A stretch of DNA of 64,000 bases from an uncultured virus (IMG/VR IMGVR_UViG_3300020050_010858). Taxonomy: Duplodnaviria > Heunggongvirae > Uroviricota > Caudoviricetes. Shown in pieces: positions 3,980 to 64,000 of this stretch (position 1 is the first letter of the stretch; each line of letters starts with the position of its first letter). Both the position numbers and the translations under genes were made by a program. The notes under the pieces are model-generated. The model was given only the letters and a program-made list of their open reading frames with translations. It had not been told where the DNA came from and did not search any database. The stretch is taken from IMG/VR virus record IMGVR_UViG_3300020050_010858. One strand, 5' to 3'.

Positions 3980-4061
3980 GCATTCGATAATTTTTGCCCA
4001 TTTAACGCAAGTGAATCCTATAAGATATTTACTTTCACATAATTTAATCTAGAACAAAATC

Positions 4062-8363: not shown

Positions 8364-8999
8364 TGAACACATCTATCTACCAAACCTACGACGACTTTTT
8401 AAATCGGACCGATAAAGAATCCAACGGAGTATCTACCTCGTTCGCTGAGACTAATCCTAATTGGGAGGCGAACAACGAAACTAATAAAGGGTGTTGGAAC
8501 TGCTCCGACTGCTCCGACTGCTCCCGCTGCTCCGGCTGCTCCGCCTGCTCCCGCTGCTCCCGCTGCTCCGACTGCTCCGGCTGCTCCCGCTGCTCCCGCT
8601 GCTCCGACTGCTCCGCTGCTCGGCTGCTCCCGCTGCTCCGACTGCTCCCGCTTGAAAGACGCAAGACCCGTAGAGGGCTCAAACGCGAACACTGTCCCAG
8701 AAATTCCAGTCATAGAGAATATTCACACGAAAGTTTTTGAAGCGTGTAGCAATCCGAACGCACTTGACATGGGAAACTGGCACACATGCGAAACGACCCA
8801 TTGTCGCGCAGGTTGGGTTGTTACGCTCGCCGGCGAAGCAGGGAAGAAACTTGAAGCGTTTCACAACACCGCCCTGGCTGCATCTTTGATTTACAAAGCC
8901 AGCTCACCGTTGCCAGTTACGATGCCTCGGTTCTATGAGACTGTACCGCAAGCAATGGCAGACATGAAACGCCTGGCAGATTTGGAAAATCTTACATAA
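8363..8999 (+). pseudogene. Cys-Ser-X repeat protein with TTHCRAGW domain, frameshifted within the repeat
   Basis: 17 TGCTCCnnC units at 8501-8651; two units are 8 bp (8609-8624). Confidence 0.7.
8501..8651 (+). repeat. 9-bp tandem repeat TGCTCC(GAC/GGC/CGC)
   Basis: Read directly. Confidence 0.95.
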
Positions 9000-12617: not shown

Positions 12618-12887
12618 TAAAAGCACGTCTTGAAAAAGTACATGAACGTTAGACCCGCAACCAGACCGCAAGCACCAAAGAACAGGTGCCACGCAATGCA
12701 CGACGCGTCATTTTCAAATTCAATCGGGGCCGGGGTAAAAGGCTTTCTCATTTGCGTTTTCCTTTTTTCTTTGCCGCTTTCTTCGCAGTCTTCTTTTTGA
12801 CCGTTTTACGTTTCGATTTTTCGGCGGGCTGTGTTTCTACTTCGGACATTTGATTTTCCTTAAGGGTGTTTTTGAAATGTGGTTGAA

Positions 12888-32218: not shown

Positions 32219-32656
32219 TCATTTACTCCAGTCTGGCCAGGTGCGGTCGCGCTTGTTCATAATCGGACCTGAGACGCCCCAATCAATTCCAAGCGCCGGG
32301 TCGTCCCATCGTAAGCCCCGTTCTGCTTCAATGACTCGGGGCTCATTCATTTCATAATGTAAAACAGTGTTCGGCAGTAACGTCAAATAGCCCACGCCGA
32401 AACCTTTCTCGACAGGGAGGATCGCGCCCGCCTGTAAAATATCGTTCGTGTGTGATCCGGTTGCCAGATTCACAATTACCAGGCGCACAGCTCCGGATAT
32501 GACGCGGACAATCTTAGCGCACGCATGGGGGACTTCCTGATAGTGAATACCGCGTAACGTATGCGGACGCGGATTTGTTACAATAACGGAAAAATCGTTT
32601 TCGTGACTTCCAATTTCACGCGCTCGCCAGACAAAACCCCTTGCGTCAAAGTACAT
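32219..32656 (-). CDS. rmlC: dTDP-4-dehydrorhamnose 3,5-epimerase
   Basis: D.RG, TLRGIHYQ, K.VRV.SG, E.GLRWDDPALGIDW. Confidence 0.9.
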   Translation of the reverse strand: MYFDARGFVWRAREIGSHENDFSVIVTNPRPHTLRGIHYQEVPHACAKIVRVISGAVRLVIVNLATGSHTNDILQAGAILPVEKGFGVGYLTLLPNTVLHYEMNEPRVIEAERGLRWDDPALGIDWGVSGPIMNKRDRTWPDWSK

Positions 32657-36190: not shown

Positions 36191-36435
36191 GCTCAAAAAT
36201 GGTTTTCACGGGCTTCGATGGCGAAGCGTTTACAATAGAGGAAACGAAAGTTTTCTCAAGTTCGGTAGGGATGAAAAAAGCTCTGGCGTCCGGCGGGATT
36301 ACGTATGCCGCTAATTATTCGCGCAAGCGCATAAAGATTGTTCACATTAAAGACGGGCTGCTTTTTGAATATTCAGGACCGGAAAAGTCAGGCCGACAAA
36401 TGCTTGCCGGGTATCCGGTAAGGGAAAAGAAGTGA
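36187..36435 (+). CDS. Hypothetical protein
   Basis: Translationally coupled on both ends. Confidence 0.5.
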   Translation: MSSKMVFTGFDGEAFTIEETKVFSSSVGMKKALASGGITYAANYSRKRIKIVHIKDGLLFEYSGPEKSGRQMLAGYPVREKK

Positions 36436-38627
36436 AGCTCGAAGAATACCAGAAGCCACACGTCAAGCGGCTAATCGAAGTTCTTAAGACTAAACGTGGT
36501 GCGCTTGACCTGAGCCATACAGGAACAGGTAAGACTGTTACGGGTTGCGCGGTCGTCCAGAAACTGGATAGACCGCTTGCCGTGGTTGCGCCCCTTGCAG
36601 CGTTGCCTGGATGGGAACGAACCGCGAAAGCGTTTGACCTGGACTTCAAAGCGGTCAACTATGAATCGGTGACAAAGAAACGCGGGTTCGTGTCTGCGTC
36701 CAGAATTGACATTCCTAAAAATGCAATCGTCATCTATGACGAAGGGCACAAGTGTCTGACGGGTTCCAGTCTAATTCAAACTGAAGTAGGGCTTATCCCT
36801 ATTGAAGAACTGGTCATGGAAAGGCTTGACGTAAAGGTGGCCAGTTATAACTTTAGCTCCCATGAGATTGAATACAAACGCATCAAAGCAAGATTCTATA
36901 AAACAAGTCCCATCGAGTTCTACGGTATTAAAGCAGGGCAGACGAAAGTCTTTTGCACGGCGGAGCATAAAATCTGGACGGACTCCGGGTGGAAAACTGC
37001 GAAAGAAATCCTTGAAAGGAATCTGCAAGGAGTGCGGGATTGTGTTCTATTATATGCGCCCTGGAAGAAAGCTCTGTTCGAGGAAGTGTTCCGCCGTTTG
37101 GAGATACAGGCAACCCGATTTGTTGGAAGCGCACCGGGAGCGATGCAAGAACAACCCAGGGAACGCGAAACTCTTGCGAAGTCCCGCTATGAGAGCCGCC
37201 AGCAAGAAAAGGATGATCGAAAGAAACCCTATGCGCTTGGAAAAAAACCGCCTCAAAGTCTCTCAGACGTTACGGAGGATTGGCCACGGACCGAAAGTTC
37301 GGGGCGGAAATGGAAAGCCGTCACCGTTATCACACAAGCGGTTCTGGCGTATAATTTCATACGACAAACGTTTCAAAGAGGAATTTCCAATCTCTATTGT
37401 CGGGCACAGAATACTAAAAGCCCCGACGTGTTACAAACTGGATTTTGCAATCCCGGCGTTACGCCTGGGAATAGAGATAGATGGTGGTTCGCACAACTCC
37501 CCCAAACGTCGGGAAGCGGACCAGAAGAAAACTCGAATACTCGCTGGACTCGGGTGGACAGTTGTGCGATTTACGAACGAGCAGATACGGAAGGAACCGG
37601 AGAGGGTAAAGAACGAAATCAATACGTTTTTGACATTGAAGTAGAAGATAATCACAATTATTTTGCAAACGATATTCTAGTGCATAATTGCAAGAACTAC
37701 AAAACGCAGAACGCGAAAACAATGCTTCGAGTTTCGAGAGCAGGTTTTAAGATCCTGACACTTTCCGCAACGCTTGCCGACCATGCCGAACAGCTCCGCG
37801 CATGGAATGACGCTTTTCGTTTTTCGGATGCTTACTCGTTTTCTGAGTTCATGTACCGTTGTGGTTACTACTACGAAAAGAACCGCTGGGGCGGGTCGTG
37901 GCTTCCACGTTATGAAAATGCGATTGAGCGCACCAAACGGGTCATAGCACCTTTCAGTTCTATTATGACCCGCCCGCCAGGGTTCAAGAATCAAATCAAC
38001 GTGACAGTGATTTCTTCTAAAGAAGACAAAGCACTTGCAAAACTGTATGAGGATACGTTCAAGCTTCTCCGATCTGGCGATAAGAAGCGAGACGGGGACC
38101 ACCTGACAAGAATGCTCAGGGCTCGTCAGGCGAGTGAGCGCGCAAAGATTGACTACGTCATTGAAAAGATTGTGGACTTGATGGCCGAAGGGTTTTCGGT
38201 TCCCGTGTTTTGCAATTTCAATAACACGATTGACGAGCTTGCAGCGCGCCTGTCAGGTTTCAATCCTGCAATCATCCGGGGCGGACAGAAGCCCGGCGAG
38301 CGTGAAAGTGAGCGTGTGAGATTCCAGGAGAACAAAGCCCGCGTCATTCTATGCAACATAGCATCCGGGGGCGTGGCGCTTGACCTGCATGACGTAAACG
38401 GTCGCCCGCGTTACTCTTTGTTCTTCCCGCCATTGTCCGGCGTGGAGTTAAAGCAGGGTCTCGGGCGGATTGACCGCCGGGGAAGTCTCAGCGATTCAAC
38501 GCAGGAAATCATTTTTTCGGACGTGCCCGCCGAGGTCCGTGTCTATGAAATCTTGAAAGAAAAATTAAGTGCACTTGATACGCTGCACGATAGCGAAATT
38601 GACATCCTGGGAGGGGTGAACGTATGA
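36432..38627 (+). CDS. SF2 (SNF2-like) helicase containing an intein
   Basis: TGTGKT, DEGH, LSAT, Q.LGRIDR motifs. Confidence 0.9.
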   Translation: MKLEEYQKPHVKRLIEVLKTKRGALDLSHTGTGKTVTGCAVVQKLDRPLAVVAPLAALPGWERTAKAFDLDFKAVNYESVTKKRGFVSASRIDIPKNAIVIYDEGHKCLTGSSLIQTEVGLIPIEELVMERLDVKVASYNFSSHEIEYKRIKARFYKTSPIEFYGIKAGQTKVFCTAEHKIWTDSGWKTAKEILERNLQGVRDCVLLYAPWKKALFEEVFRRLEIQATRFVGSAPGAMQEQPRERETLAKSRYESRQQEKDDRKKPYALGKKPPQSLSDVTEDWPRTESSGRKWKAVTVITQAVLAYNFIRQTFQRGISNLYCRAQNTKSPDVLQTGFCNPGVTPGNRDRWWFAQLPQTSGSGPEENSNTRWTRVDSCAIYERADTEGTGEGKERNQYVFDIEVEDNHNYFANDILVHNCKNYKTQNAKTMLRVSRAGFKILTLSATLADHAEQLRAWNDAFRFSDAYSFSEFMYRCGYYYEKNRWGGSWLPRYENAIERTKRVIAPFSSIMTRPPGFKNQINVTVISSKEDKALAKLYEDTFKLLRSGDKKRDGDHLTRMLRARQASERAKIDYVIEKIVDLMAEGFSVPVFCNFNNTIDELAARLSGFNPAIIRGGQKPGERESERVRFQENKARVILCNIASGGVALDLHDVNGRPRYSLFFPPLSGVELKQGLGRIDRRGSLSDSTQEIIFSDVPAEVRVYEILKEKLSALDTLHDSEIDILGGVNV
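36753..37688 (+). mobile_element. Intein (312 aa) inserted just after helicase motif II
   Basis: N-terminal CLTG, block B CTAEH, block F/G VFDIEVEDNHNYFAN.ILVHN followed by Cys. Confidence 0.93.
36862..37644 (+). CDS. Zn-finger plus Vsr/DUF559-like endonuclease nested in the +1 frame of the intein
   Basis: CKECG...CSRKC; YKLDFA...IEIDGGSH...D.KK..L...GWTVVRFTNEQI; true start uncertain. Confidence 0.85.
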   Translation: MRLNTNASKQDSIKQVPSSSTVLKQGRRKSFARRSIKSGRTPGGKLRKKSLKGICKECGIVFYYMRPGRKLCSRKCSAVWRYRQPDLLEAHRERCKNNPGNAKLLRSPAMRAASKKRMIERNPMRLEKNRLKVSQTLRRIGHGPKVRGGNGKPSPLSHKRFWRIISYDKRFKEEFPISIVGHRILKAPTCYKLDFAIPALRLGIEIDGGSHNSPKRREADQKKTRILAGLGWTVVRFTNEQIRKEPERVKNEINTFLTLK

Positions 38628-45373: not shown

Positions 45374-46666
45374 ATGAAAACGTCAACGGTAATCGTCTGG
45401 AATTCGCGCGTCAAGAATCTTGATTTCTGGGCCACGATCATTTCAAGGGTCGACCCGAAGGAAACGAGCTTTACCGTTATCCACAATCTCAAGGGCTCGC
45501 CAGTTTCTTCTAAAGAAGTGCGTGAGAAAGTCGAGGCTTGCGGGGCAACCTACATTCCACGGAAGACCCCCGGCATGGACATAGGCGCATTCCAGGAAGT
45601 TTGCAGGCATAGACTCGAAGGTTTTGACTATAACTACGATTTTCTAATCTGGTTCACTGATGACTGCTTTCCAATGACGCCAGATTTCGCGCAGTCCTAC
45701 CGGAAACCTTTTTCTGACCCTGCGATGGGGCTTTCTTGTCTTGAGATTTCTTCTCAGGGGAGACGGCACGTTCGCACTACAGGTTTCGGAATTAGACGTG
45801 CAGTCGCGGAAAGTCTAACCTTTCACGTTGACCCGATTTCTACCAAGGAAGAGTGCTATGTCTTCGAACACCGGGACAAGCGCGCGACGCTGTATTTGCA
45901 GATCCTGGCGAAAGGCTTAAAGGTCGCTCAGATTGCGCCGATACGGCAGTCTCCGGTCTGGGATTCAGGCGGGGGCGGGCACGGCTGGGTCAACCGGCGA
46001 GAAGAGTTTGAAAAAGTCTGGGACCTTAAAAAGAAGGGTTCGAAAGTTTTGATCCTCGCAACGTGTTTTGAAAGGTTCCCCCCGGTTGTCGCGTCTTTCC
46101 TTGCCCAGACTTACCATAACTGGGAATTACGTTTAATCCACAACGGACCTGCCCCGACGCTCTACCCGAAATTTGATGACCCACGAATCATATTTGAGGA
46201 AACAGACCAGAACAGGGGAAATTTTGGACACCCTAACCGGGAGCTATTCCTTAACCGGATTCGCGCGGGCACGCTGGCCGGGGATTACGCGCTCATTACG
46301 AATGATGACAACTACCACGCACCGTTTTTCCTTGAAAAACTGGTCCGGGCGCTGGACGAAAACCCGGACGCCCCCGGCGCTTACTGTTCGGCAATGGTCC
46401 ACAATTACGCGGGCATCAAAGGCGATACGACGGTCAGGATGGAAGACGGTCACGCCGTGGATGGCTACGGGGTAATCAATGTAAAACCCGAGCGCGGACA
46501 TATGGACGTTGCTGGGGTCCTCATTCGCGCGGAAATGGCCGGGCGTGCGGGCTGGCCCGACTACACGCATTCCAGTGATTGGACGTACCTCGACCGGGTA
46601 GCACAGCAAAACGGAGGGTGGGGAAAATTCAAAGTCGTCCCTGGCGTTTTGCTTGTGCATAATTGA
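45374..46666 (+). CDS. Two-domain glycosyltransferase (C-terminal GT2)
   Basis: GMDIGAF, TDD; AQTY.NWEL, TNDDNY, SDW. Confidence 0.75.
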   Translation: MKTSTVIVWNSRVKNLDFWATIISRVDPKETSFTVIHNLKGSPVSSKEVREKVEACGATYIPRKTPGMDIGAFQEVCRHRLEGFDYNYDFLIWFTDDCFPMTPDFAQSYRKPFSDPAMGLSCLEISSQGRRHVRTTGFGIRRAVAESLTFHVDPISTKEECYVFEHRDKRATLYLQILAKGLKVAQIAPIRQSPVWDSGGGGHGWVNRREEFEKVWDLKKKGSKVLILATCFERFPPVVASFLAQTYHNWELRLIHNGPAPTLYPKFDDPRIIFEETDQNRGNFGHPNRELFLNRIRAGTLAGDYALITNDDNYHAPFFLEKLVRALDENPDAPGAYCSAMVHNYAGIKGDTTVRMEDGHAVDGYGVINVKPERGHMDVAGVLIRAEMAGRAGWPDYTHSSDWTYLDRVAQQNGGWGKFKVVPGVLLVHN

Positions 46667-46686
46667 AAGCCGGGGGAGAATGAAAA

Positions 46687-47907
46687 ATGGGTGGTTACAG
46701 TCCTTCACATTGGAGATTTGAGGAAGAAGAATTGGAAAGAGTGGAAAGAGTGGAAAAAGTAAAGAAGCACACCCAATGCAGGTTATGCAGCGGACCCCTT
46801 GAGCTGGTTTTAGATTACGGTGCAATGCCGCTTGCAAACGCCCTTGCCGATTCGCGTGACGCCGCCCTTGTAAGCGAGCTGTTTGAACAAAAGCTAATGT
46901 TTTGCAACGAGTGCTTGCTGGGTCAGCTTTCCGTAGTCGTTAGCCCGGAAACTCTTTACAAGGATTACGCGTACAGGTCCGCAACGTCAGGCGCTTTTCG
47001 GAAACATTGAGAAGGGCTCGCACGGGAGCTTGTAGCATGGGGGCCAATCGAAACGGTGCTGGACATTGCGGGCAATGACGGAACCATGATAAAAGAAGTT
47101 CTGAAAAGAAAACCGGTTCAGGGTTTCGTGTGCGACGTTACGCAGGACGAGAACCCGGAGGACTACGTGAAAGTTAAACGCTTCTGGAACGAGGAAACTG
47201 CAAGCGACTTTTTGAAAGAACACGGAACCGTTGACGCGGTAATCGCTCAAAACGTCGTCGGTCACGTTGACCACGTAATTGAATTTTTTAAGGCTGTGCG
47301 CAAAGTCCTGACCCCCGGCGGGGTCTTTGTTGTAGAGGTGCCGTCTTTCCCCGAGCTTGTAAGATCCGGGGCGTTTGACACGGTCTATCATGAACACCTG
47401 TCCTATTGGACCGCTACGGCGATGCGCGCGCTTGCGGAAAAGTCCGGGCTTGTTCTGTGCAGCACCGAATTTTCAAACGTGCATTGCGGGTCGTTCAGGT
47501 TCTGGTTGACTGACCAGCGTTTCGCCAGCGTGCACGGGCAATCGATCGAGCTGGCGGAAAGGGAATTTTTTCAAGGCCCCGGATGGGGGGAGTCAGTTTT
47601 CCAGAAGTTTGGGGCGGGGCGATTTTTTCAGGAATGGTTGCGCAATGAAATAGTAATTGGCGTAACGGCGAGCGCAAAGGCAACAGTCCTTTTAAATGCC
47701 TACGCTGTGCCCGTTGACTACGTAGTGGATAGCGCCGCATCAAAACACAGAAAGTTTATTCCCGGGGTTGGCCTCGAAATAAAACCATTCACGCGTGAAA
47801 ACCTTATTGGTGCAACGGTGGCTTTGATCCTGTCTCGTAACCTGGTCGGGGAACTTACCGAACAGTTAAGGCAGAACGGTTTTAAGGGCATAATTGTAGC
47901 CGTTTAA
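46687..47907 (+). pseudogene. NDP-sugar C-methyltransferase interrupted by one in-frame TGA (47008-47010)
   Basis: CRLC...MPLAN..C..C Zn site; LDIAGNDG, YHEHLSY, ASAKA; both ORFs are in the same frame. Confidence 0.8.
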
Positions 47908-51831: not shown

Positions 51832-52556
51832 ATGAAGTACGAATCTAAGAAAACAGAGATGGGAAACATCGGCGTTTCCTACGAATCGCAAGAGTTGGCA
51901 GACAAGCAAGCCGCAGAGATGGATGCAGGAAAAAACCGAAATTGTTATAGCTGCTCCGGCTGCTCCCGCTGCTCCGACTGCTCCGACTGCTCCGGCTGCT
52001 CCGGCTGCTCCGGCTGCTCCCGCTGCTCCCGCTGCTCCGACTGCTCCGACTGCTCCGCTGCTCCGACTGCTCCGACTGCTCCGGCTGCTCCGGCTGCTCC
52101 CGCTGCTCCGGCTGCTCCCGCTGCTCCGACTGCTCCAAAGTGGCCTCTAGCGAAAATCTGAAAAATGCACGACCAACAGTCGACTCCGAAGATTCCGAGC
52201 CTGCTGTTGCGCCTGTGCCGGTCATCGCCAATATCCACCGGCGCGTGCTGGAGGCAATTACCGCCGATCCTGACACGTTCGATATGAGCCAGTGGCATGG
52301 CAAGACTGCCTGCAAGACGACGCATTGCCGGGCGGGTTACGTGACCTTCCTGGCTGGTGAGGCCGGCCGCAAGCTGGAGGAGCAAACGTCAACTCTTCAC
52401 GCCGCAATGCAGATTTACCACGCATCGTCACCCGACATCCAGGTCTCGCCTCCCCGCTTTTTCGAGCCGAACCCAATTGCCCTTGCGGACATCAAGCGAT
52501 GTGCTGCCGAGGAAGCTGAAAAATTAAACAGGGCTCGACCCCTTGGCCGTCCGTAA
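51832..52556 (+). pseudogene. Cys-Ser-X repeat protein with TTHCRAGY domain, frameshifted within the repeat
   Basis: 21 units at 51952-52139; one 8-bp unit at 52051-52058. Confidence 0.7.
51952..52139 (+). repeat. 9-bp tandem repeat TGCTCC(GAC/GGC/CGC)
   Basis: Read directly. Confidence 0.95.
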
Positions 52557-54842: not shown

Positions 54843-55428
54843 ACCTATGTTCAAAATCACTATCACGGAAATCCCTAGTCCAATCGCCCCTCGTCCAATC
54901 GCCCCTCGTCAGCTCGAAATCGGAGAGGTTGCCGAATTGCCACTAATTCAGCCGGTCGAGCGGTATTCGCAAACCGTCGATGCAATCAACCTTCCCGCTG
55001 TCATGGCGGCCGTAAATCGGCAGCCGAGGCGGAAGCGCTCTCCAAATATAAAAGCATGAAATACGAGGACATGAGCCCGCCTGAAACATTCGTCTTTTTC
55101 AGAGAAGGATTCTTTTATCCCGTGGAAATTCCTGTCGAATCCATCGCCGATAACGCCGCTCTGAATCCCGGAACGCTGCGGGTTGAAGATTTGTGCGGTC
55201 GTGTCATGTGGTCACATGCGCAGGTCTAGGACAGTAGGGCGACCGGAACTAATCGATGAGCTCCATTTTCTCTACGGATCAACAAGCGCAAACGACCTGA
55301 TGAATATTCTAACCGACCTCGCCCAAATATCCGATTTAGCCGTCGATCTATCCGACGTGCCGGATTCGGATTTGATGCGGGCTAGAAATCGCGCGCTTAA
55401 CTCTGAAAGGAAGGCGGCATGAAAGTTT

Positions 55429-55748
55429 ATGCAAAAAATCAACCTTCACCTGTGGCTTCCGCTCTACCGTACACCCAGCCTCAACGAATACAGAGTCGGA
55501 CACTTCCGCCGCCGTATGAAGCTGAAAGAGGAGGCGAGGTGCGCATTGACGTCGTCATTACTCGACGCTCTTGCCGACTACTCGACGACGACAATCTGTA
55601 CGGAGGAGCGAAGCCGCTTATTGATAGCCTGCGCGAGCTTGGCCTCATCCCGGACGACGACACGAAAACGATCAAGCTTGAATGCCGGCAGGTCCGGGTC
55701 TCGAGTCGTGCACAAGAAGGTGTTGAGCTTGAAATAAAGCATCCATAG
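55429..55748 (+). CDS. RusA-like resolvase split over two overlapping frames
   Basis: PSLN N-terminus in the 55429 frame; DDDNL..K...D.L..G.I.DD in the 55419 frame. Confidence 0.65.
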
Positions 55749-55750
55749 TA

Positions 55751-56674
55751 ATGGCCTCACTGCCCTATATGCAGTTTTTCCCCTCCGATTGGATGGCAGA
55801 TTGCCAAGTTCTGTCGTTGGCTGCGCGCGGGGCATGGCAGACGATTATTTGTAAGGCATGGCACCCTTCCACAAGGGGTGTAATCACCATGAAATTACCG
55901 GCTATAGCCAGGCTATTAGGGGCTACCGTGGAAGAGGCGGAAAAAGCAATATGTGAGATTTCAGAAACGCAGATCGGCGACGTCAAAAACAACGAAGACG
56001 GAACGATTACCATCATTTGTCGCCGTGCAAAACGCGACTGGGAGAGTGCCGAAACTCGTCATTCTTCTCTGTCGGAGGCCGGATCTAAGGGCGCGGCAAA
56101 ACGTTGGAAAAAGCCCGATAGCCAGGCCAATAGCCACCCCATCGAAAGGCCAATGGCAATCCAGAAGCTAGAAGCTAGAAGCCATATTATACCCCCAACC
56201 CCCAAAGCGAAGACGCCGAAACCCGATCGAATCCCAACCACTGAGTCAGCCAAGCGAATCGCTTCGCTCTTCGCGCGCCGTCTGACGACGGCTTGGAGCG
56301 AGAAAGAGGTCAAGGCTTTCAAGTCTCTCGGAGATGTGGTTCCAGACGACCTGGCTGCAATTGAACGCTACTATGCCGTAGAGCGCGCCAAGGGACCTGA
56401 CGCCGGCCGACATCGGAGGGACCTACTAACGTTTCTGAATAACTTTCCTGGCGAAGTTGATAGGGCGAGAGCAAAACAGCCGCGCCCATGCACAGGAGCC
56501 ACCTCGACGCTCGAGCTTGTTCGCCAGCGCGCCCTGGTCTTCGGGCTTGTAGCCTTCCGCGAGTGGATGCGGATTGAGTACGGCGACAGAGCTGAAGGCG
56601 AGGACGATCTACACACTGTCACTCGCGAAGGACTGATCGTCGATTTTCTACGTTCAAAAGGAGCATTAGCATGA
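55751..56674 (+). CDS. Replication initiator (DUF1376/YdaU-like N-terminus)
   Basis: PYMQFFPSDW..D...LS..ARGAW; G.KGA.KRW. Confidence 0.8.
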   Translation: MASLPYMQFFPSDWMADCQVLSLAARGAWQTIICKAWHPSTRGVITMKLPAIARLLGATVEEAEKAICEISETQIGDVKNNEDGTITIICRRAKRDWESAETRHSSLSEAGSKGAAKRWKKPDSQANSHPIERPMAIQKLEARSHIIPPTPKAKTPKPDRIPTTESAKRIASLFARRLTTAWSEKEVKAFKSLGDVVPDDLAAIERYYAVERAKGPDAGRHRRDLLTFLNNFPGEVDRARAKQPRPCTGATSTLELVRQRALVFGLVAFREWMRIEYGDRAEGEDDLHTVTREGLIVDFLRSKGALA

Positions 56675-56699
56675 ACCCATCCGACCCTATTACAATTAT

Positions 56700-57215
56700 A
56701 TGAAAGCTCATCAAAGCAGTACTGGAAAAAACGACGAGTGGTTAACGCCGCGATGGATATTGGAACCGCTTGGTGCGTTCGATCTCGATCCTGCCTCACC
56801 CGTGAGGCGGCCATGGCCTACCGCTCGCCATCACATGACCGTTGAGGATGATGGTCTGGCTAGCAAGTGGTTTGGTCGCGTATGGCTAAATCCTCCGTTC
56901 AACCGCTATCAACGGCCTAAGTGGATGCAGGCAATGGCGGGGCATGGTAATGGGATCATGCTGATTCCTGCTGCCACAGAGACCGCGGCCTTTACGAAAT
57001 GGGTCTGGAAAGAAGCGAATGCAGTTTGCTTTGTGGCAACCCGGCCACACTTTCACTTAGTCACCGGCGAGCGAGCAAAGGCCAACTGCGGCTGCTCAAT
57101 CGCGCTAGCGGCCTATGGCGAGGACAACGCACGAATCTTAGAGCGTAGCAGGCTCGGAGCCACACTCCGCCTGCGCGCCCACCACCCAACCCATCAACCG
57201 AGTGAGCGAAAATGA
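56700..57215 (+). CDS. Phage adenine methyltransferase
   Basis: DEWLTP, FDLDPA, DGL...W.GRVWLNPPF. Confidence 0.85.
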   Translation: MKAHQSSTGKNDEWLTPRWILEPLGAFDLDPASPVRRPWPTARHHMTVEDDGLASKWFGRVWLNPPFNRYQRPKWMQAMAGHGNGIMLIPAATETAAFTKWVWKEANAVCFVATRPHFHLVTGERAKANCGCSIALAAYGEDNARILERSRLGATLRLRAHHPTHQPSERK

Positions 57216-57522
57216 GTGATGCGCAAACTTGTGTTTGTCGAAACGAGACACGCTCTGGACGCTCGCCGTGTGCGCGTTCGCTGGATGGTGGGTGTGGTGG
57301 GTGCCGCTGGCACTCTTCGCAACGCACTTCGCGCAGGATCGAACGAACATCATCATGTGGTGGATGAAGCTGCCGTGGAAGGATCAAACCGCCTTTACAA
57401 CTGGACCTTGCTCGCCGTGGTCGATCATCGTGGTCGATAACGTCTGGCACATCGTGACCCTCTACGTGGTGGCGTATGTATTGGTCTAACGCAGAGGTCA
57501 GGAATCCTCACCCAGAAAAACC

Positions 57523-57930
57523 ATGAATATGAATAAAGCAATCAAAACAAAATCGGCCTCATCGAAGCCCCAAGTCGCGGCGGGTGGGGATTCCCTGGAC
57601 CGCCTTGTTCGCCTGCGTTTGGCGATGTGGGCGGAGGGGTGGACATCCGAGGATCAACTCACGACAAACGGATGGGGAAGCGGACTTGGATACTCTATCT
57701 GGTTCAACCGATGGGACTGGCACGGCAAAAGGCTGACGGCCTTCCGCGCAACCTACCACGCGCACGGGCTGGCCAGGGATGGAATCCTGAGCGTCGCAGA
57801 AAAAGCGGCGGCACTGGCGCGGGAGGCGTGGGAGAGGTTCCCAGACGAACCACCAAATCAGATGGCTCATTACGTGCTGCAATCGCCGGGGGATTATGTC
57901 TTGGCGAACGATCAGTTATGCCAGCCATGA
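57523..57930 (+). CDS. Cassette hypothetical protein
   Basis: Starts and ends inside attC sites. Confidence 0.55.
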   Translation: MNMNKAIKTKSASSKPQVAAGGDSLDRLVRLRLAMWAEGWTSEDQLTTNGWGSGLGYSIWFNRWDWHGKRLTAFRATYHAHGLARDGILSVAEKAAALAREAWERFPDEPPNQMAHYVLQSPGDYVLANDQLCQP

Positions 57931-58496
57931 GCGCCAACGACGATCTTTTCACGCTAGAGCCAGCCGCGAAGGGCTTGGCATCAGCGTCTTGTTCAGCGGT
58001 TCTTTCGAGCTGCGGACAGTATCGCTACGAGCTTTGGAGGCGATGGGCAGAGGGGCCGCATGTGCTCTTCATAATGCTCAATCCATCGACCGCCGACGCC
58101 ACGAATGACGACGCCACAATCCGCAAGTGCGTGGCTTACGCGAAGCGGTGGGGTTTCGGGGCGCTGTGCGTTGGGAACCTCTTCGCCTTCCGTGCGACTG
58201 ACCCGAAGGACATGAAAGCCGCTGCCGATCCAATTGGGCCGGAGAACAACGCCACACTCGCAAGGCTGGCAAGCGAGGCAGGTGTGATCGTGGCTGCTTG
58301 GGGAGCGCATGGCACGCACATGAGCCGCGACAAGTCAGTGATGAAGATGCTGCCGACAATCAACGCCCTGCACGTCACGAAAGACGGCTCGCCGGGGCAT
58401 CCGCTCTACCTCAAAGGTGACGCCACGCCCTTTCCGCTGAACGCAGAGTTAACGCGCGGCGTAGCCGTCGCGTTGAACGCCGGGTTAGAGCCATGA
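57927..58496 (+). CDS. DUF1643-family protein (cassette)
   Basis: YRYEL.R.W...FIMLNPSTAD...DD.TIRKC...NLFA.RAT.P...HPLY. Confidence 0.88.
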   Translation: MSANDDLFTLEPAAKGLASASCSAVLSSCGQYRYELWRRWAEGPHVLFIMLNPSTADATNDDATIRKCVAYAKRWGFGALCVGNLFAFRATDPKDMKAAADPIGPENNATLARLASEAGVIVAAWGAHGTHMSRDKSVMKMLPTINALHVTKDGSPGHPLYLKGDATPFPLNAELTRGVAVALNAGLEP

Positions 58497-58906
58497 CGCA
58501 CCACCGCGTGACGCCGATGGGCCAGGCGATGGGGAAGAGCGCCGCGCGACTGGCGCAGCTTGGCCGCCTACGGCTCGAAGCCGCTGGGCTGACGAACCTG
58601 AAGCTGCCCGCGATGCGCGACGAGATGTGCAAAACCTGCGCTGGTCGAGAGGGAACCGTGCCGAACGGCTGCCTGCAAACGCAGCTCGATTTTCTGAAAG
58701 CGGTGGTTGATGGTCAGAGATTTTTATGTCATTCGCCAAAAGATGGCCGGATGTGCGCTGGTTGGGTGGCCGCACGCGCTGAGCATGTGGCAAACCCGCT
58801 GCCGAGCGAGGCTCAGGAGTTTTTAGCGCGCTGGGAATATTCACCGCCCGATGCCGATGGCTCTAACACCACGATGAGCTGCACAGCCCCGAAGGAGGAC
58901 GCATGA
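58493..58906 (+). CDS. Cys-rich hypothetical protein (cassette)
   Basis: C..CA, FLCH, CAGW. Confidence 0.6.
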   Translation: MTHHRVTPMGQAMGKSAARLAQLGRLRLEAAGLTNLKLPAMRDEMCKTCAGREGTVPNGCLQTQLDFLKAVVDGQRFLCHSPKDGRMCAGWVAARAEHVANPLPSEAQEFLARWEYSPPDADGSNTTMSCTAPKEDA

Positions 58907-59151
58907 ATCCAGAGCAAAGCGTGGACGGGGCTGTGTTAGCTCCATCGACTGTTCGGCCTATGCCGATAGAAATGAGGCGATGGCTGAAATATCAACTCGA
59001 AAAAGCAAGGCAGCCGATTCCGGAATCTGATCGCAAATATCCACTCAGGGTCATGCTGTATGAGTCCAATCGTGAAATGATGGAGGAGTGGGATAAATGG
59101 ATCGAATCGCTGCCCTCTTTTGATCAGCCGAACGATAAAATCCTGCCATGA
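58903..59151 (+). CDS. Cassette hypothetical protein
   Basis: RBS AGGAGG and ATG lie inside the attC loop. Confidence 0.55.
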   Translation: MNPEQSVDGAVLAPSTVRPMPIEMRRWLKYQLEKARQPIPESDRKYPLRVMLYESNREMMEEWDKWIESLPSFDQPNDKILP

Positions 59152-59921
59152 CTCCCGCGCCCTTCCAGCTCGATTCTGAACCGACTCCCTCGCGGGAGTC
59201 ATTGGCAGCGATGCCTTGTTGTGGATCTTTGGATCTGCGCTTGGCTGACTGCATGGAGGTGATGAAAACCTTCCCGGATGGCCACTTCGACCTTGCGATA
59301 GTCGACCCGCCTTACGGACTCGGTGACGCTCTGGTCGCTGGTGGAACATGGTCGGTTAAGTATCAAGCCAAGGGGGCGAAATGGGACGTGAAGCCGGAGG
59401 CTGAATACTTCGAAGAACTCCAGCGCGTGGCGAAAAACTGGATCATATGGGGCGCGAACTACTACTCGCAACACCTCCCGCCAACGCGGGGCTTCGTCGT
59501 CTGGCACAAGCCGAACATGGAAGGAATGCACACGATGGCGAACTGTGAGCTGGCATGGACGAGCTTCGACCGGAATGCCAAGACGGTATCAATCACGCGG
59601 CCAAACGAAGACAGAATCCACGTCTGCCAGAAGCCGGTGAAGCTCTATGACTGGCTCCTGGCAAACTTCTCGAAACCGGGCGAGCGGGTGCTGGATACGC
59701 ACATGGGAAGCGGAAGCATCGCCATTGCGGCTCACTACGCCGGGGTGCATCTGACGGCCTGCGAGATCGACCCGGAATACTTCCACGCGGCCAAGGCGCG
59801 AATCGAAAAGGAGACGCGCCAAATGGACTTCTTCAATCTCCACAACGACGGAACTCAGCGACCCGGCTCACCGGACGGGTCGCTTGCAACTGAAACGCGA
59901 AAGCCGGGTTCGCTGAAGTGA
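59148..59921 (+). CDS. DNA N4/N6 methyltransferase (cassette)
   Basis: DPPYG, WGANY, ELAWTS, H..QKP, GSGS. Confidence 0.9.
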   Translation: MTPAPFQLDSEPTPSRESLAAMPCCGSLDLRLADCMEVMKTFPDGHFDLAIVDPPYGLGDALVAGGTWSVKYQAKGAKWDVKPEAEYFEELQRVAKNWIIWGANYYSQHLPPTRGFVVWHKPNMEGMHTMANCELAWTSFDRNAKTVSITRPNEDRIHVCQKPVKLYDWLLANFSKPGERVLDTHMGSGSIAIAAHYAGVHLTACEIDPEYFHAAKARIEKETRQMDFFNLHNDGTQRPGSPDGSLATETRKPGSLK

Positions 59922-59952
59922 CTGGTTAGACCACGGCAACAACACCAAAAAT

Positions 59953-60273
59953 ATGACAAACCAAAGACTAAGAAACCTGACTACTGGCCGACTCCACACG
60001 GAAATGGGCCACATCTACGAAGACCTCGGAATCATCACCGGCGAGGAAGGGCTGATGACTCACATGCTACCGAGAGCAATGCGCGCCTGTGAACCGTGGC
60101 TGCGCGAGCACGTCACCGACCCGCGCTTCTGGGATGGCGAATACGATACAACGCACACCGGAGAAACCGAACTCCCGACGCCAAGCGAGGCCGACCGCAA
60201 GGCGATGTTCGAGCGATACGCGGAACAACCGAATCCACTCGCTGGCAAAGAGGTCATAGGCGTAGTGGTCTAA
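59953..60273 (+). CDS. Cassette hypothetical protein
   Basis: Stop TAA lies inside the R'' box GTCTAAC. Confidence 0.65.
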   Translation: MTNQRLRNLTTGRLHTEMGHIYEDLGIITGEEGLMTHMLPRAMRACEPWLREHVTDPRFWDGEYDTTHTGETELPTPSEADRKAMFERYAEQPNPLAGKEVIGVVV

Positions 60274-60616
60274 CAGGTAGAAAACCAAAGAAACTTCGTA
60301 TAAACGAAAAATCACTCTGTTAAATAACCATAGACATACGCGCATGTCGTGATAGATTGAATGAAATGAAAGTAACAATTTGGAAAAATTTTGGAAAACG
60401 GAAAGGGCTATCTATCTCAAAAGATTGCTCGCCGATTGGACTTGTTGAAATTTGGAACAGTATTTCCAATATGGGAAATCTCAAATCTGATGCCGTATCA
60501 GATCTAATGTTCATGCGAGCCAGTAGGATGCTTCGTCTATCTATCGAGGCTGGGGCAACTCCATTCAATCTTACTGAAAGAAAAGGATACCAAATCATCC
60601 AGGCGGAGGTTGAGTT

Positions 60617-61003
60617 ATGAGTGTTTATCCTGACTGTCCTCACGGGGAAGAGCAGCTTGAATCTGGTGTTCTTAACGACCCTACTCCCAAATCTATCGAG
60701 TGGGGCGATCTCGCGGATTTCGACGAAATGTTCAAGCATATTTGCGAACACTCTGACGGATTTACATATGCTCAAATGGAAACAGTTCGAGCGTGGATGC
60801 ATGCGGGGATTTCGTGGAAACAAATGCAACATGTTAACGAAATTCATGATTTCAAATCCATCTTGTTAAGATGTTACAATAACGGAATTGATTCTGTAAA
60901 TTTCGATGGTCGTCTTGCTTCTGAAAATAAACTAGCGACCGAAGAAATTCTGAAATTCCCAATATCCGATTGTTCGTTAAATAATAACGAGGCCTACAGA
61001 TGA
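60617..61003 (+). CDS. Hypothetical protein
   Basis: GGAGG RBS; coupled. Confidence 0.45.
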   Translation: MSVYPDCPHGEEQLESGVLNDPTPKSIEWGDLADFDEMFKHICEHSDGFTYAQMETVRAWMHAGISWKQMQHVNEIHDFKSILLRCYNNGIDSVNFDGRLASENKLATEEILKFPISDCSLNNNEAYR

Positions 61004-61153
61004 AATGCCCTCAATGCGGCTACGAAATCGAGTCCCAGCAAAGGCGAGCTGCAAATTCTCGCTGGTCAAAAATGACCCCCGAACAGAAATCCGCCCAAAT
61101 GTCCAAAATCCGCAAAAAGGGGATTAAGAAAAAGAAGAAACCCCTTAGCAAGA

Positions 61154-61465
61154 ATGGATACGACAACACAGACCCCTTCCGTTGCCACCAGTGCCTTGTT
61201 AGGATGCCCGTTCTGCGGTGGCGAAGCGAGCGCAACCGGTGAAGTGAAATACTCCGAAACCCATGAAGCGTGGTGGAAGGATGGAACACGCATCCGTAAA
61301 TCCTACTTCTGCAACTGCATGAAGTGCGGAGTAACCAACAAGGGTCTGTGCGGACATCAGACGCCTGCGCTGGCTGTCAGACATTGGAACACCCGCAGTC
61401 AGGCTAACGCAATAGGTGAGGCACGGGCGGACACCGACACCTCGCCGCAAGATCAAACTCTCTAG
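61154..61465 (+). CDS. Lar-family restriction alleviation-like Zn protein (cassette)
   Basis: CPFCGG...C.KCG...A...WNTR. Confidence 0.75.
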   Translation: MDTTTQTPSVATSALLGCPFCGGEASATGEVKYSETHEAWWKDGTRIRKSYFCNCMKCGVTNKGLCGHQTPALAVRHWNTRSQANAIGEARADTDTSPQDQTL

Positions 61466-61778
61466 CCACCATGCCACTCCGAAACAACACCGCCCCGCCC
61501 GTTGCTCTCGACCGACTTGTTCGGGATCTCATTTCGCGGGCGAGAGATCAGAAACGCCGCACCCGCCAACGACTGCGTGACATGGAGGGAGATTTCATCG
61601 CGGAGCCGACTCGCGGCCCCATCCAACGCAATGGCAGGCGGTGCATCCGCTGGCACTTCTGGCAGGCATCCCGCGCCAAACATCAGGCCATCACCGACCA
61701 AATCACGGCGGTCAAATCATGTATCCCGAACACCGTAACGGTGTGGGACACGAAGGCGGACAAAGAAGTCTATCGCGC

Positions 61779-61994
61779 ATGAACTGGGCTGCACAATTCG
61801 TCGAAGCACGCGGCAGCCTCACTCAAGCGGAGGCTGCCGCTTCCATTTCCGCGCTCCTCTCTGTGCGCACCGTTGAAGATTGGGAACTCGGTCGCAGGCA
61901 ACCTCCAGCTTGGGTGCAAGCTCTCGTGCTCGCTGTTCTTCGGCGGGCGGCGGGGAGGAAAACCGCTCGCGCGAAAACCGGAGCAAGGAAATGA
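61779..61994 (+). CDS. HTH transcriptional regulator
   Basis: LTQAEAA...SVRTVEDWE.GRR.P. Confidence 0.75.
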   Translation: MNWAAQFVEARGSLTQAEAAASISALLSVRTVEDWELGRRQPPAWVQALVLAVLRRAAGRKTARAKTGARK

Positions 61995-62378
61995 ACGACG
62001 ACATGAGCCACTGCGAAGCCAGCCCCGCCGCAAAATGACCGCCCAAGCCACATCCCGGCCCGAGTCCAACCGCGTAGCGGTTGGCTCGATGGGCTTGTTG
62101 GGCGATGTCCTCCCTGGTCAAAAATTCCGCTTCCCTCACAGGAAAGAAGGCGCGCCGGTCTATGAAATGCTATCGCGCGGAAGCTGGAAGGCTGGAATGC
62201 AGGTCCGCAGAACGTGGCCGGATGGATGCTCTGACGAGGTGACGCTCTCAAAGAAATACCTGCGCGAGGAAGTTATATTTATTCAGCCCAACGATAAGGT
62301 CAGCGACGGCGGGCCGCTGACTCCCGAATCCAAACAAGACGCGAACCCGCCGTTCGCTGCACCGCTTGGTTAGCCCTT

Positions 62379-62624
62379 ATGACACTACAACGCAAACTCA
62401 CTCAATGGACGGAATGTGTGCCGGAAGAAATGGCGAAGATGTCGCCAGCGGCAATCCAATACGCACTGGCCGACGCCAAGGCGGACATAATCACAATGGC
62501 GAAACTCCTGTGCGAAGCCGGATACCCGCGCCGTGGAACGCCGGAAGAATCCCAAACCATCTATGACTACGCCGAGAAGGTGCAAACGCTCATCCCGCAC
62601 GCCGATGCCGTCGAGTTGGGCTAA
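62379..62624 (+). CDS. Cassette hypothetical protein
   Basis: Bounded by GTTAGCCC and GGGCTAAC. Confidence 0.6.
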   Translation: MTLQRKLTQWTECVPEEMAKMSPAAIQYALADAKADIITMAKLLCEAGYPRRGTPEESQTIYDYAEKVQTLIPHADAVELG

Positions 62625-63146
62625 CGCAATAGGTGAGGCGCACGGGCGGAAAGCGCCACGTCGCCACGCCAGAAAGGAATGAAATGACTCCTGAACATCT
62701 GACGCGATTGCAGTTCCAGTTCGCGTCGATAAAATCATGGATAGAAATAAAGCCAAAAGAAGCTCAAGCAGCGCTACTAGCATTAATTCCTAAGCGCAAC
62801 GATTATCGAATTTGGGCCATACTTGAAATGGTCTGTTTATATGACTCAGAAGATAGCGCCGAGAAGAAAAATATTGAGCGCACAATTTTGGAGATTTTAA
62901 GAAATAAATTATGAGTGAAGAATCGAAATGCGAATCTATGTGCGAGGGGAGATATACAGCCACTGGGCATTGCTTGTGTCACGCCACACATAGCGAAGAT
63001 GTAGTGCCTAGAGAGCTTGCCATAAGGCTCGAAAAAGAAGTCCACATTCTAGAGGCGGCATTAAAGGCGACTAAAGGTAAACGCATGGGGCATGTTGAGG
63101 ATATTGTAAAAAAGGCCCTCCGTGAAGTAGAGAGGATGAGGAAATT

Positions 63147-63587
63147 ATGAGTGTTTGCAGAAATCACAATCCCTACGACAGATGGACGTATGACCACCAA
63201 TGCCCTGTTTGTTTATCAAAGACCATTGACGAGAAAGACGCGACCATCGCCGAGCTGAATGCGCGGGTTAAGGAGCTGGAGGAGAATGTGCGGGAATCTC
63301 AAAAACAAGACCAGAGCACTCTCTCCGAGTCTAACGAGCGGCTGAGAGAACATATAACCTCCCTAAATTGTGGTGGCCGCGATGGAATTGATGTTTGCAC
63401 GGAAGATAGTGCATGTTTTGTCCACTCAGCACTCTCCGACACGCCATCCGGCCAGCGGTTTGTTAAGAGGGAGGTTTTGGAGGGCGTTATGGCAGTTGCC
63501 AGATTTGGAAGTATGGAGCAGTCGCCACCCGGATTTTCGGACGATCAAATTGATGCAGCCCAGGCCGAGCTGGATAGGACGAGGTGA
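63147..63587 (+). CDS. Hypothetical coiled-coil protein
   Basis: Coupled ORF. Confidence 0.45.
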   Translation: MSVCRNHNPYDRWTYDHQCPVCLSKTIDEKDATIAELNARVKELEENVRESQKQDQSTLSESNERLREHITSLNCGGRDGIDVCTEDSACFVHSALSDTPSGQRFVKREVLEGVMAVARFGSMEQSPPGFSDDQIDAAQAELDRTR

Positions 63588-63675
63588 GTTAAACCCGAAT
63601 CCTTAATTGGTAATACAGGGGATTGATAAGGGGTTCTTGACGAAGTATGTCAAGCCTGAAATGCTATCTACACTT

Positions 63676-64000
63676 ATGGGCCGCCCTTCAAAATATACTC
63701 AATCTCTTGCTGATGAGATTTGCGAGCGACTTTCTAAATGTGAGCCCCTGGCTGGGATATGCAGGGGGGAAGGGAAGCCAACAACTCAAACAGTCAATGC
63801 TTGGGTTCGTGATAATGAATCTTTCGCCATCGCATACGCGCGCGCGAGAGAGGAAGGGTTTGACGAAATAGCAATGGATTGTCTACATATCGCTGACGAG
63901 ACAGGGCAGGATACTAAATACACTGACTCAGGCGAACAGGCAGATAGCGAATGGATCACTCGCAGCCGACTACGTGTTGAGACGCGCCTGAAACTTTTGG
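63676..64000 (+). CDS. terS: Terminase small subunit (Sf6 gp1-like), 3' truncated; absent from the ORF track
   Basis: MGRPSKYT...DEICERL...IC...P...TV..W......F...YARARE...IAD...RLRVETR. Confidence 0.85.
   Translation, partial: MGRPSKYTQSLADEICERLSKCEPLAGICRGEGKPTTQTVNAWVRDNESFAIAYARAREEGFDEIAMDCLHIADETGQDTKYTDSGEQADSEWITRSRLRVETRLKLL

Follow-up and report, generated by a model that had tools for sequence, protein, structure and literature searches.

The 64,000-nucleotide stretch of DNA analysed here, referred to as the window, belongs to an uncultured virus of the Caudoviricetes (IMG/VR record IMGVR_UViG_3300020050_010858). Near its right end, the segment 57482-62665 most probably represents an integrase-less cluster of integron-type cassettes, that is, a cluster of attC sites lacking integron-integrases (CALIN), which occupies an accessory slot of the phage between the replication genes and the small terminase gene terS. 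An earlier note on this DNA had proposed that the region is built from attC cassettes, and that the phage uses the integron integrase (IntI) of its host to acquire and shuffle them. This overall interpretation is partly supported by our analysis. The array comprises nine intact attC-type hairpins on the plus strand within 57482-62377 (named A0 to A5, A7, A8b and A9 below), plus three or four half-sites. The number of intact sites agrees with the about nine hairpins listed previously, but 61723 turned out to be an AAC box only, the intact hairpin at 61988-62105 had been overlooked, and the positions 60265 and 62618 on the one hand and 61182-61203 on the other represent only 5' halves and a 3' half, respectively.

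Boxes, geometry and strand of the attC-type sites

The earlier note described nine cassettes in which the opening GTT box is the reverse complement of the AAC box at the cassette's own end. All of these box pairs are present where they had been placed: GTTCGCC (57607/57903), GTTCAGCGG (57991/58434), GTTAGAGCC(AT) (58484/58857), GTTCGGC (58951/59127), GTTGTGGA (59218/59839), GTTAGACCAC (59925/60265), GTTCGGGAT (61519/61723), GTTGGGC (62097/62286) and GTTAGCCC (62369/62618). Since the 64 kb contain 112 GTT 7-mers that have their complement downstream, an unremarkable number, the chaining itself was tested. In all nine cases, the GTT box of a site is complementary to the AAC box of the following site over 4-8 bases past the triplet, as is expected for the cognate boxes of integron gene cassettes, whereas the two boxes within one hairpin share 0-1 such bases in the nine hairpins, and at least 4 complementary bases were found in 2 of 99 non-cognate box pairs (2%). 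This confirms that the chaining of boxes is real and far beyond chance. A match between cognate boxes is the footprint expected had each unit once closed into a circle.

The geometry of the sites was read with a small scanner in eight cases and by hand in the ninth (61406-61521). On the 5' side of all nine sites, the AAC is followed by 5-6 unpaired nucleotides, a 3-bp L box, 6 bp, and an inner stem with its loop. On the 3' side, an extra T precedes 6 bp, one extra base (C, G or A), 3 bp, 4-5 nucleotides and the GTT. All nine are therefore imperfect hairpins closed by R boxes with AAC and GTT, and they possess the L box, the spacer and the extrahelical bases that characterise attC. The AAC and GTT are invariant in the site alignments A1 and A8. 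As a positive control we used the true class 1 array of a phage P1 isolate (MH445380; locus L019), in which the scanner recovers six attC sites antisense to the resistance genes and directly 3' of each, with the same spacing of an extra T and then G or C. In the window, as in these six class 1 sites, the extra bases lie 8 and 15 nucleotides before GTT. The extra base nearest to GTT is C in five window sites, G in three and A in one, while it is mostly G in class 1 sites. Folding gave z-scores below -1.7 on at least one strand for six of the eight hairpins folded; the long-loop hairpins 57482-57613 and 61396-61527 had unremarkable folding energies. Within 57488-62371 the scanner reported eight matches with scores of at least 12 and the extra T, all on the plus strand, and three matches of equal quality were found over both strands of the remaining ~59 kb.

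The eight scanner sites of the window are located on the gene-coding strand, and reading by hand placed the ninth (61406-61521) on this strand too, with identical spacing. The recombinogenic bottom strand of an attC site carries AAC in R', has its extrahelical bases on the opposite arm and is cleaved between A and C (Nivina et al. 2016, PMC5027507). The extrahelical bases for which the earlier note had suggested a fold check were indeed seen, on the 3' arm of the plus strand. As they lie opposite the 5' AAC, the plus strand corresponds to the attC bottom strand. The plus, coding strand thus has attC bottom-strand geometry, the sites being canonical and the genes inverted relative to them. The previous assumption that the plus strand is the top strand, with cassettes opening between G and TT, is contradicted by the position of the extra bases and by the co-inheritance of each hairpin with the gene downstream of it. 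In a classical cassette, a promoterless gene on the top strand is followed by its attC site, whereas the genes found here are on the bottom strand with the hairpin 5' of the gene.

Detection of the array by a covariance model

A covariance model, R1, was built from 10 IntI-linked sites of other viral contigs and none from the window (alignment A8); this set was taken instead of a MAFFT alignment of 15 sites in which the 5' arms were misplaced. In alignment A8, changes on both sides were observed in 10 of 14 base pairs, none of 500 shuffles matched the observed score, and shifting of the partners destroyed the pairing. When applied to the window, R1 detected eight sites with default filters and nine with the filters off, all on the plus strand within 57482-62377 and with E-values from 2e-13 to 7e-5, and no other match below an E-value of 0.01 was found in the window. 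The next-best match, at 1765-1827 (18.6 bits, E 0.024), lies between two genes and has fully complementary boxes, CAGAAC and GTTCTG; it may represent a solitary site or a terminator. R1 also found three class 1 attC sites in L019, antisense to the resistance genes, with E-values from 6e-7 to 1e-5. An Rfam search yielded no family match in the array and no attC match in the window. The view that integron-type attC sites bound the cassettes is supported by the box pairing, the geometry, the R1 matches and the homology breaks at AAC that are described below. The window sites belong to the same family as sites located beside true IntI genes in viral contigs and verrucomicrobial chromosomes.

Limits of the predicted mobile units and their interlocking with genes

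The DUF1643 gene of the array has a 93% identical relative in the viral locus L021. Nucleotide identity of 89% between the window and L021 extends over 57900-58443, beginning at the AAC box of the hairpin upstream of the gene and ending at the AAC box that follows the gene. The hairpin upstream of DUF1643 is common to both, with compensatory changes in the stem (ATGCCA/TGGCAT to ATCCCA/TGGGAT) and in the L box (GTT/AGC to GGT/ACC). The two sequences diverge right after ...CCGCTGAACG, where L021 goes on with a hairpin resembling A4. A single 720-bp match (94.7%) connects L030 and L027, which are otherwise unrelated 6-kb loci, and its limits are the AAC of the hairpin preceding a methyltransferase gene and, behind this gene, a point three bases beyond the next AAC. 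Because the hairpin is inherited with the downstream gene, and because the breaks fall at the AAC box, each cassette starts with its hairpin. The predicted mobile unit is the hairpin plus the downstream gene, cut between AA and C. The position of the breaks contradicts the earlier view that cassettes open between G and TT.

The genes are interlocked with the sites. At seven of the nine window sites, the AAC is in frame with a long upstream open reading frame (ORF) that runs into the hairpin. The same in-frame readthrough of AAC was observed at 16 of 19 sites of the relatives of the cassette genes and at 12 of 14 IntI-linked sites, while the other two frames read through AAC far less often. The stop codon is the TGA of an ATGA at six of the nine window sites and, at A1, A3 and A4, the ATG of this ATGA starts the next gene. 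At the half-sites 60265 and 62618, and at A0, the TAA of CTAAC serves as the stop codon. An attI site can give an in-frame stop as well: in the viral locus L032, the methyltransferase ends at a TGA six codons past the AAC. We also considered a fixed in-frame valine codon at GTT, but this idea was dropped, as a reading by hand showed GTT to be in frame in only three of the six genes crossing it. As most genes read through AAC as asparagine and terminate within the following hairpin, we infer that units could be put into any order without breaking translation.

Integrases and attI sites in related viral contigs

The methyltransferase cassette of L032, a locus of the 33.9-kb contig G006 (CheckV completeness 87%), is 54% identical to that of the window and ends with GCCGAAC. 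An intI gene (4741-5745) starts 65 nucleotides after this GCCGAAC, on the same strand as the methyltransferase cassette. Its product scores 354 bits on TIGR02249 (cut-off 265) and its alignment with VchIntIA (2a3v; E 1.6e-65) covers the whole protein, the IntI-specific segment included. Relatives of this IntI, with 63-100% identity, are present in 16 viral contigs. In the IntI contigs, 23 of 25 high-quality scanner matches are on the intI strand, all of them upstream of intI; five IntI loci had no scanner match at the high-quality threshold. From the last AAC up to the start of the integrase gene, the sequence is conserved and exists in two main variants. Eleven pairs of loci with a common integrase platform were compared: in 8 of them the homologous region begins 0 to -4 nucleotides from the last AAC, and in the remaining three it continues into common cassettes. 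Locus L066 contains ~1.8 kb of extra cassettes exactly at attI, with flanks that are 99.8% identical to L065. The polarity of sites, attI and intI in these IntI-bearing relatives is classical, as in L019, and only the genes are flipped so that they point towards intI. The comparisons of relatives show that whole units occur in unrelated contexts and that arrays differ exactly between AA and C beside a conserved attI.

A putative attI remnant behind the AAC at 60274 was rejected, because the likeness was by eye only and an nhmmer profile of nine attI regions gave no match below an E-value of 10. This profile has no match below that value in the window or in L030, and it finds only the attI of L032 itself. 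In L030, the sequence AACAGTGAATTATAAC... after the methyltransferase gene (2130-2180) resembles by eye the attI variant 'AAC AGTGATTATCC'. The attI profile does not score this segment, and the contig has no tyrosine recombinase in its 35 kb (52% complete). It may represent an attI site left without its integrase.

Neither an intI gene with the IntI-specific segment nor attI was found in the window, whereas both are present in the related viral contigs. The earlier statement that the window lacks an integron integrase is borne out by the TIGR02249 and tblastn searches. That the phage uses a host IntI, as suggested, is no more than a possibility. Related viral contigs encode their own IntI directly behind the arrays, and verrucomicrobial chromosomes contain related IntI genes and sites. 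According to the IntegronFinder rule, a CALIN has at least two attC sites on one strand within 4 kb and no intI nearby (Cury et al. 2016, PMC4889954). With nine sites within 4.9 kb on one strand, a largest gap of ~1.5 kb and no IntI in the 64 kb, the window array is a CALIN under the rule as given there.

Sites and genes of the array from left to right

All features described in this section are on the plus strand. Site A0 (57482-57615, AAC 57488-90, GTT 57607-09) has 35.6 bits with R1, or 26.2 bits with the filters off, and a scanner score of 12; its extra bases are G and T, and its long loop contains the start codon at 57523. Cassette gene 1 (57523-57930, 135 aa, from the ORF list) has no match in Pfam, NCBIfam or PHROG; it crosses the AAC at 57907 in frame and stops within the next hairpin. 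This hairpin, A1 (57901-57999; 51.6 bits, E 7e-12), is the one with compensatory changes relative to L021, and its ATGA combines the stop codon of gene 1 with the start codon of cassette gene 2 (57927-58496), which encodes a DUF1643 protein (PF07799, E 8.5e-45; phrog_3230). Site A2 (58434-58492) is short, with 47 nucleotides from AAC to GTT, and has an extra G and T like class 1 sites; it was found by R1 only with the filters off (24.3 bits, E 7e-5), with a scanner score of 13 and a fold z-score of -3.4. Cassette gene 3 (58493-58906, 137 aa), an entry of the ORF list with a weak DUF6283 match, has no assigned function. Site A3 (58859-58959; 30.4 bits; fold z-scores -3.7 and -4.3) has in its loop a GGAGG followed by ATGA. 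It is followed by cassette gene 4 (58903-59151, 82 aa, ORF list), again without an assigned function.

Site A4 (59125-59226; 53.8 bits, E 2e-12) is located upstream of, and overlaps, the start of the methyltransferase gene, and related hairpins precede the methyltransferase homologues in L027, L030 and L032. The methyltransferase, encoded by cassette gene 5 (59148-59921), is an N6/N4 DNA methyltransferase (PF01555, E 1.5e-14; phrog_67) with 31 related viral loci. Site A5 (59838-59933; 40.2 bits) shares 59844-59928 with a 32-kb metagenome contig, the match beginning exactly at the AAC. Cassette gene 6 (59953-60273) encodes a DUF7736 protein (PF24875, E 2.6e-17), and its stop codon is the TAA within the box GTGGTCTAAC. 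This box is part of the half-site 60265-60274, an AAC box that is complementary to GTTAGACCAC at 59925, has no hairpin behind it and gave no R1 match.

An AT-rich block with 45% G+C follows at 60290-61150; it contains the ORFs 60357-60620, 60617-61003 and 61000-61242, and R1 found no attC-type site in it. Behind the block lies the Lar-like restriction alleviation gene (61154-61465; TIGR03655, E 1e-6; phrog_599, E 3e-11). The first 48 nucleotides of this gene match the 3' part of a hairpin that is intact in L032 (R1 match at 3638-3772) and L060, with 81% nucleotide identity to L060 6980-7027. For this reason, the AT-rich block probably replaced the 5' arm of a site. The 3' arm without its 5' partner (61182-61203; repeat family D4, by hand) consists of the extra T, 6 nucleotides, the extra C, AGT, GCCTT and GTT. 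A single hairpin uniting 60265 and 61182 around an 880-bp insertion was discarded, because inspection by hand showed that the arms are not complementary.

The long loop of A7 (61400-61527; 32.4 bits) contains the stop codon of the Lar-like gene and the start codon at 61471. The gene starting there (61471-61782, 103 aa, from the ORF list) has no assigned function and lies between the boxes GTTCGGGAT and ATCCCGAAC. A small helix-turn-helix-like gene (61779-61994, 71 aa; weak NadS and VC1465 matches, phrog_2104) is located between two AAC boxes without a hairpin of its own. Site A8b (61988-62105; 27.4 bits, E 1e-5; scanner score 13) is followed by a gene for 94 aa (62089-62373), for which the ATG at 62089 was chosen by hand within the ORF 61873-62373, and which reads through A9 to the TAG in GTTAGCC. 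A9 (62284-62377; 57.5 bits, E 2e-13) is the top-scoring site. The last cassette gene (62379-62624, 81 aa, ORF list) stops at the TAA in GGGCTAAC. At the right end of the array, a 5' half-site without a 3' arm (62618-62665; repeat families D1, D6 and D7) is 85-92% similar to the 5' arm of A7 and has no R1 match.

The family matches confirm that the cargo is of phage type and includes a DNA methyltransferase, a Lar-like protein and a DUF1643 protein, as had been noted. Together with the unassigned genes, this cargo suggests counter-defence and other accessory functions.

Phage context and possible hosts

Phage genes were found throughout the window by Pfam, NCBIfam and PHROG scans. The block from ~8.5 to 52.1 kb contains structural, lysis and replication genes plus a gene for a tyrosine recombinase of 283 aa. 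This block exists alone, circularly permuted and with 97-100% identity, as the virus record G001 (41,950 bases), which has no match to window positions 55000-64000. G001 links 52136 straight to ~8499. A 9-bp tandem repeat (GCTGCTCCG/A-type) forms two arrays, at 8380-8720 and 51980-52320, that mark the joints between the window and G001. These joints could have arisen when the phage inserted in, or recombined with, another phage via a common repeat-bearing gene, or they could be an assembly chimera.

The 52.1-64 kb part encodes an AAA_24 ATPase, a DUF669 protein, a DUF1376 protein and the Dam methylase, followed by the small-gene region and then by the Sf6-type small terminase. The array is flanked on the left by the phage Dam-type DNA adenine methyltransferase gene (56700-57215, plus strand; PF05869, E 8e-12), which lies outside it, and on the right by terS (63607-63999, plus strand; PF20901, E 1e-23; phrog_1482), which continues past the end of the window. 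This agrees with the earlier placement of the array in an accessory region between the Dam methylase and replication genes and terS.

The tyrosine recombinase is Xer-like (10942-11793; PF00589, E 2.6e-20), and its gene is part of the G001-like block, outside the cassette array. Its best NCBIfam matches are XerA, XerD and XerC, far under the cut-offs. A helicase gene (36432-38627) in the same block is split by an intein (Intein_splicing, E 1.6e-12, between the ResIII and Helicase_C matches). Genes for sugar modification (11790-12701, 32219-32656 and 45374-47907) encode an RmlD-like reductase, a dTDP-sugar epimerase-like protein, a glycosyltransferase and C-methyltransferase-like proteins, which may serve modification of the host surface or of DNA. 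A DNA search of cultured phages gave short matches to the DUF1643 or methyltransferase genes only. The neighbouring DUF1376 gene has two distant related loci. One of these, L009, carries its own array of six sites of the same family (3635-6290), located upstream of the replication gene, whereas the window array is downstream. The contig G006 encodes a polyvalent protein of 2698 aa (L074, 4728-12824) with an ADP-ribosyltransferase-like segment (ART-PolyVal, below the cut-off).

Relatives of the integrase in contigs sampled as one genome per species were found in metagenome-assembled genomes of Verrucomicrobia (75% and ~50% identity) and in one of Pirellulaceae. R1 gave 42 matches in these chromosomal contigs, all on the integrase strand, and the sites are upstream of intI in L077, L078 and L080, the loci for which coordinates were checked. 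Gene polarity appears to be mixed in these chromosomal arrays: of the four Pfam-matched ORFs, three have the classical orientation and the fourth shares the strand of the integrase gene. AAC is read through in frame at 15 of 29 chromosomal sites. In the window, all four genes with family support are on the bottom strand. Reversed gene polarity as a phage trait is a lead, given the small numbers (4/4 versus 1/4).

Relation to known integron systems

Clusters of attC sites in phages have been published. Qi et al. (2023, PMC9892861) report three complete integrons, one In0 and 17 CALINs from 10,705 phage genomes, recombination by IntI1 of five of the six phage attC sites tested, and five methyltransferase cassettes in phage arrays. 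In view of these 17 phage clusters and the IntI1 recombination, the earlier remark that such clusters are not well characterised in phages does not stand, and the window array is a member of a published kind. Like the described CALINs (PMC4889954, PMC9892861), it has several attC sites less than 4 kb apart on one strand, no intI nearby and a position in a phage accessory region; it shares the DNA methyltransferase cargo, the AAC and GTT boxes, the L box, the extra bases, the unpaired spacer and the variable loop. In contrast to the CALINs as described there, its four family-supported genes are all on the bottom strand, the hairpin precedes and overlaps the gene instead of trailing it, and most genes end inside the next site. 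The arrays of TJE1 and PH101 have the typical bacterial layout according to the published description (PMC9892861), and on that description the window is set apart from them.

With classical integrons (class 1 integrons, the chromosomal integrons of Vibrio, and IntI of 2a3v), the array has the geometry of the sites and the crossover between AA and C in common, and the IntI-bearing relatives share the polarity of sites, intI and attI and gain cassettes at attI. The window differs from these systems by having no intI, attI or cassette promoter. In its relatives, unlike in classical integrons, intI is downstream of the genes on the same strand, ~60-65 nucleotides behind the last AAC, and the genes face intI. 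Single reverse-oriented cassettes, for example those encoding toxin-antitoxin systems, are known in chromosomal integrons. In the window, by contrast, the whole array is reversed and the genes need the flanking sites for stop and start codons. An 'inverted integron-integrase group' has been described in which intI is co-oriented with the cassettes (PMC4889954); compared with that description, intI in the viral relatives has the classical orientation relative to attC and only the genes are flipped. Literature searches on phage integrons and reversed cassettes returned only PMC9892861 on phage attC clusters, and no report of reversed gene polarity or of stop codons borrowed from the next site.

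Weighing the interpretation

In the interpretation as a CALIN, each unit begins with the C of an AAC box, ends with the AA of the following one and consists of an attC-type hairpin, a GTTxxxx box and a gene ending in the complementary xxxxAA. An IntI acting in trans would fold the plus strand, cut it between A and C, excise units as circles, and insert or reshuffle them. The source of this enzyme could be a related phage, the chromosome of the host or a part of the phage's own genome outside the window. As the genes are on the bottom strand, they would be read by phage transcription through the array and not from an integron promoter. Most genes would have no stop codon of their own, reading AAC as an in-frame asparagine codon and ending in the next hairpin, often at the ATGA that starts the next gene.

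Several observations weigh against this interpretation. The polarity of the genes is opposite to the classical definition of a cassette. No IntI is encoded in the 64-kb window, where the highest score on TIGR02249 is 47.8 (cut-off 265) and a tblastn search found only 21% identity at 11293-11757, and no attI-like sequence was found in it. The training sites of R1 were chosen by a scanner that demands pairing, and the figure of 96% paired positions is thus partly circular; only the covariation counts, not the percentage paired. R1 is a narrow model, as neither the Vibrio phage array L020 nor phage TJE1 gave a significant match, and its E-values are approximate. The relatives with IntI are contigs from metagenomes and are viral by the IMG/VR call. 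For G006, the viral support consists of an amidase, the polyvalent protein, a DUF1376-DnaB module and the CheckV completeness estimate of 87%, while fourteen G006 proteins have no PHROG match. No circular junction or clean cassette deletion was seen in public sequencing runs; five such runs contain 6-12% of the window words, as contigs only, and the four that were examined gave scattered pieces with low-confidence joints. Lastly, the half-sites at 60265, 61182 and 62618, the bare AAC box at 61723 and the 860-bp AT-rich interruption fit decay.

Such remnants, as well as the lack of intI and attI in 64 kb and the overlap of coding sequence with every hairpin, would suit a fossil array that was assembled by an ancestral integrase and is now immobile, its hairpins being kept for stop codons, ribosome-binding sites and start codons. 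We regard this as rather unlikely. Without selection on DNA structure decay would be expected, but in nine sites the geometry is complete, both extra bases are retained and the cognate boxes match perfectly. Moreover, viral contigs and the chromosomes of likely hosts encode related integrases, and the DUF1643 unit is found at 89% identity beside a different neighbour.

ATGA overlaps and runs resembling Shine-Dalgarno sequences are found within the hairpins, which are located on the coding strand, and the absence of an Rfam match leaves room for an undescribed RNA element. The hairpins might consequently act only as RNA, for translational coupling or as processing sites or attenuators in a polycistronic transcript. 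It is improbable that this is their sole function, because it cannot account for box complementarity across genes in the absence of complementarity within the same hairpin, for units in unrelated contexts that break at AAC, for cassette differences at attI beside IntI, or for the R1 matches to class 1 attC sites. A second, RNA-level role of the hairpins is possible.

We give as little credence to a Xer-like phage recombinase that moves the units in place of IntI. The window encodes a candidate, the 283-aa tyrosine recombinase with its weak similarity to Xer and IntI (TIGR02249, 47.8 bits), but the gene belongs to the block that is found alone as G001 without an array. Furthermore, next to the relatives of these cassettes there is a complete IntI whose alignment with VchIntIA spans the IntI-specific segment, and of five related contigs searched for PF00589, four had no tyrosine recombinase and the fifth had only IntI.

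An assembly artefact, in which a fragment of a bacterial chromosomal integron was joined to phage DNA, is most improbable: the disagreement between the window and G001 at the two copies of the 9-bp repeat makes some chimerism possible in this assembly family, and verrucomicrobial chromosomes contain the same site family, but the disputed joints at ~8.5 and 52.1 kb are away from the array, which shares a single contig with the Dam and replication genes on its left and terS on its right and resembles them in G+C, the cargo is phage-typical with the same units in viral contigs of 30-43 kb, and the gene polarity is that of viral arrays, whereas three of four Pfam-matched chromosomal ORFs are on the other strand.

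Implications

Beyond the assignment of the array as a CALIN, we consider a broader proposal, for which we see about as much reason to accept it as to doubt it. Phages of Verrucomicrobia-like hosts may carry a phage-adapted integron in which a 5' attC lies on the coding strand and the genes are stop-less, the next attC or attI supplying the stop codon and often the ATGA start. Any shuffled order would then form a coupled operon on a phage transcript, with intI at the far end. The window would then be a representative without an integrase, trading anti-restriction and other accessory genes both with phages of this type and with the integrons of host chromosomes.

Integrons are known mainly as bacterial collectors of resistance genes and, more recently, of defence genes. 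If phages keep their own version of the integron, the same recombination chemistry would serve both sides of the phage-host conflict, and the phage version would be tuned such that any cassette order is expressed from phage transcripts. As the cargo includes a DNA methyltransferase and a Lar-like protein, the small unassigned genes in such arrays constitute a list of candidate counter-defence genes. For annotation, this implies that tools expecting a gene and then its attC will attribute these sites to the wrong gene, and that where a predicted protein ends at such a site is determined by the adjoining cassette.

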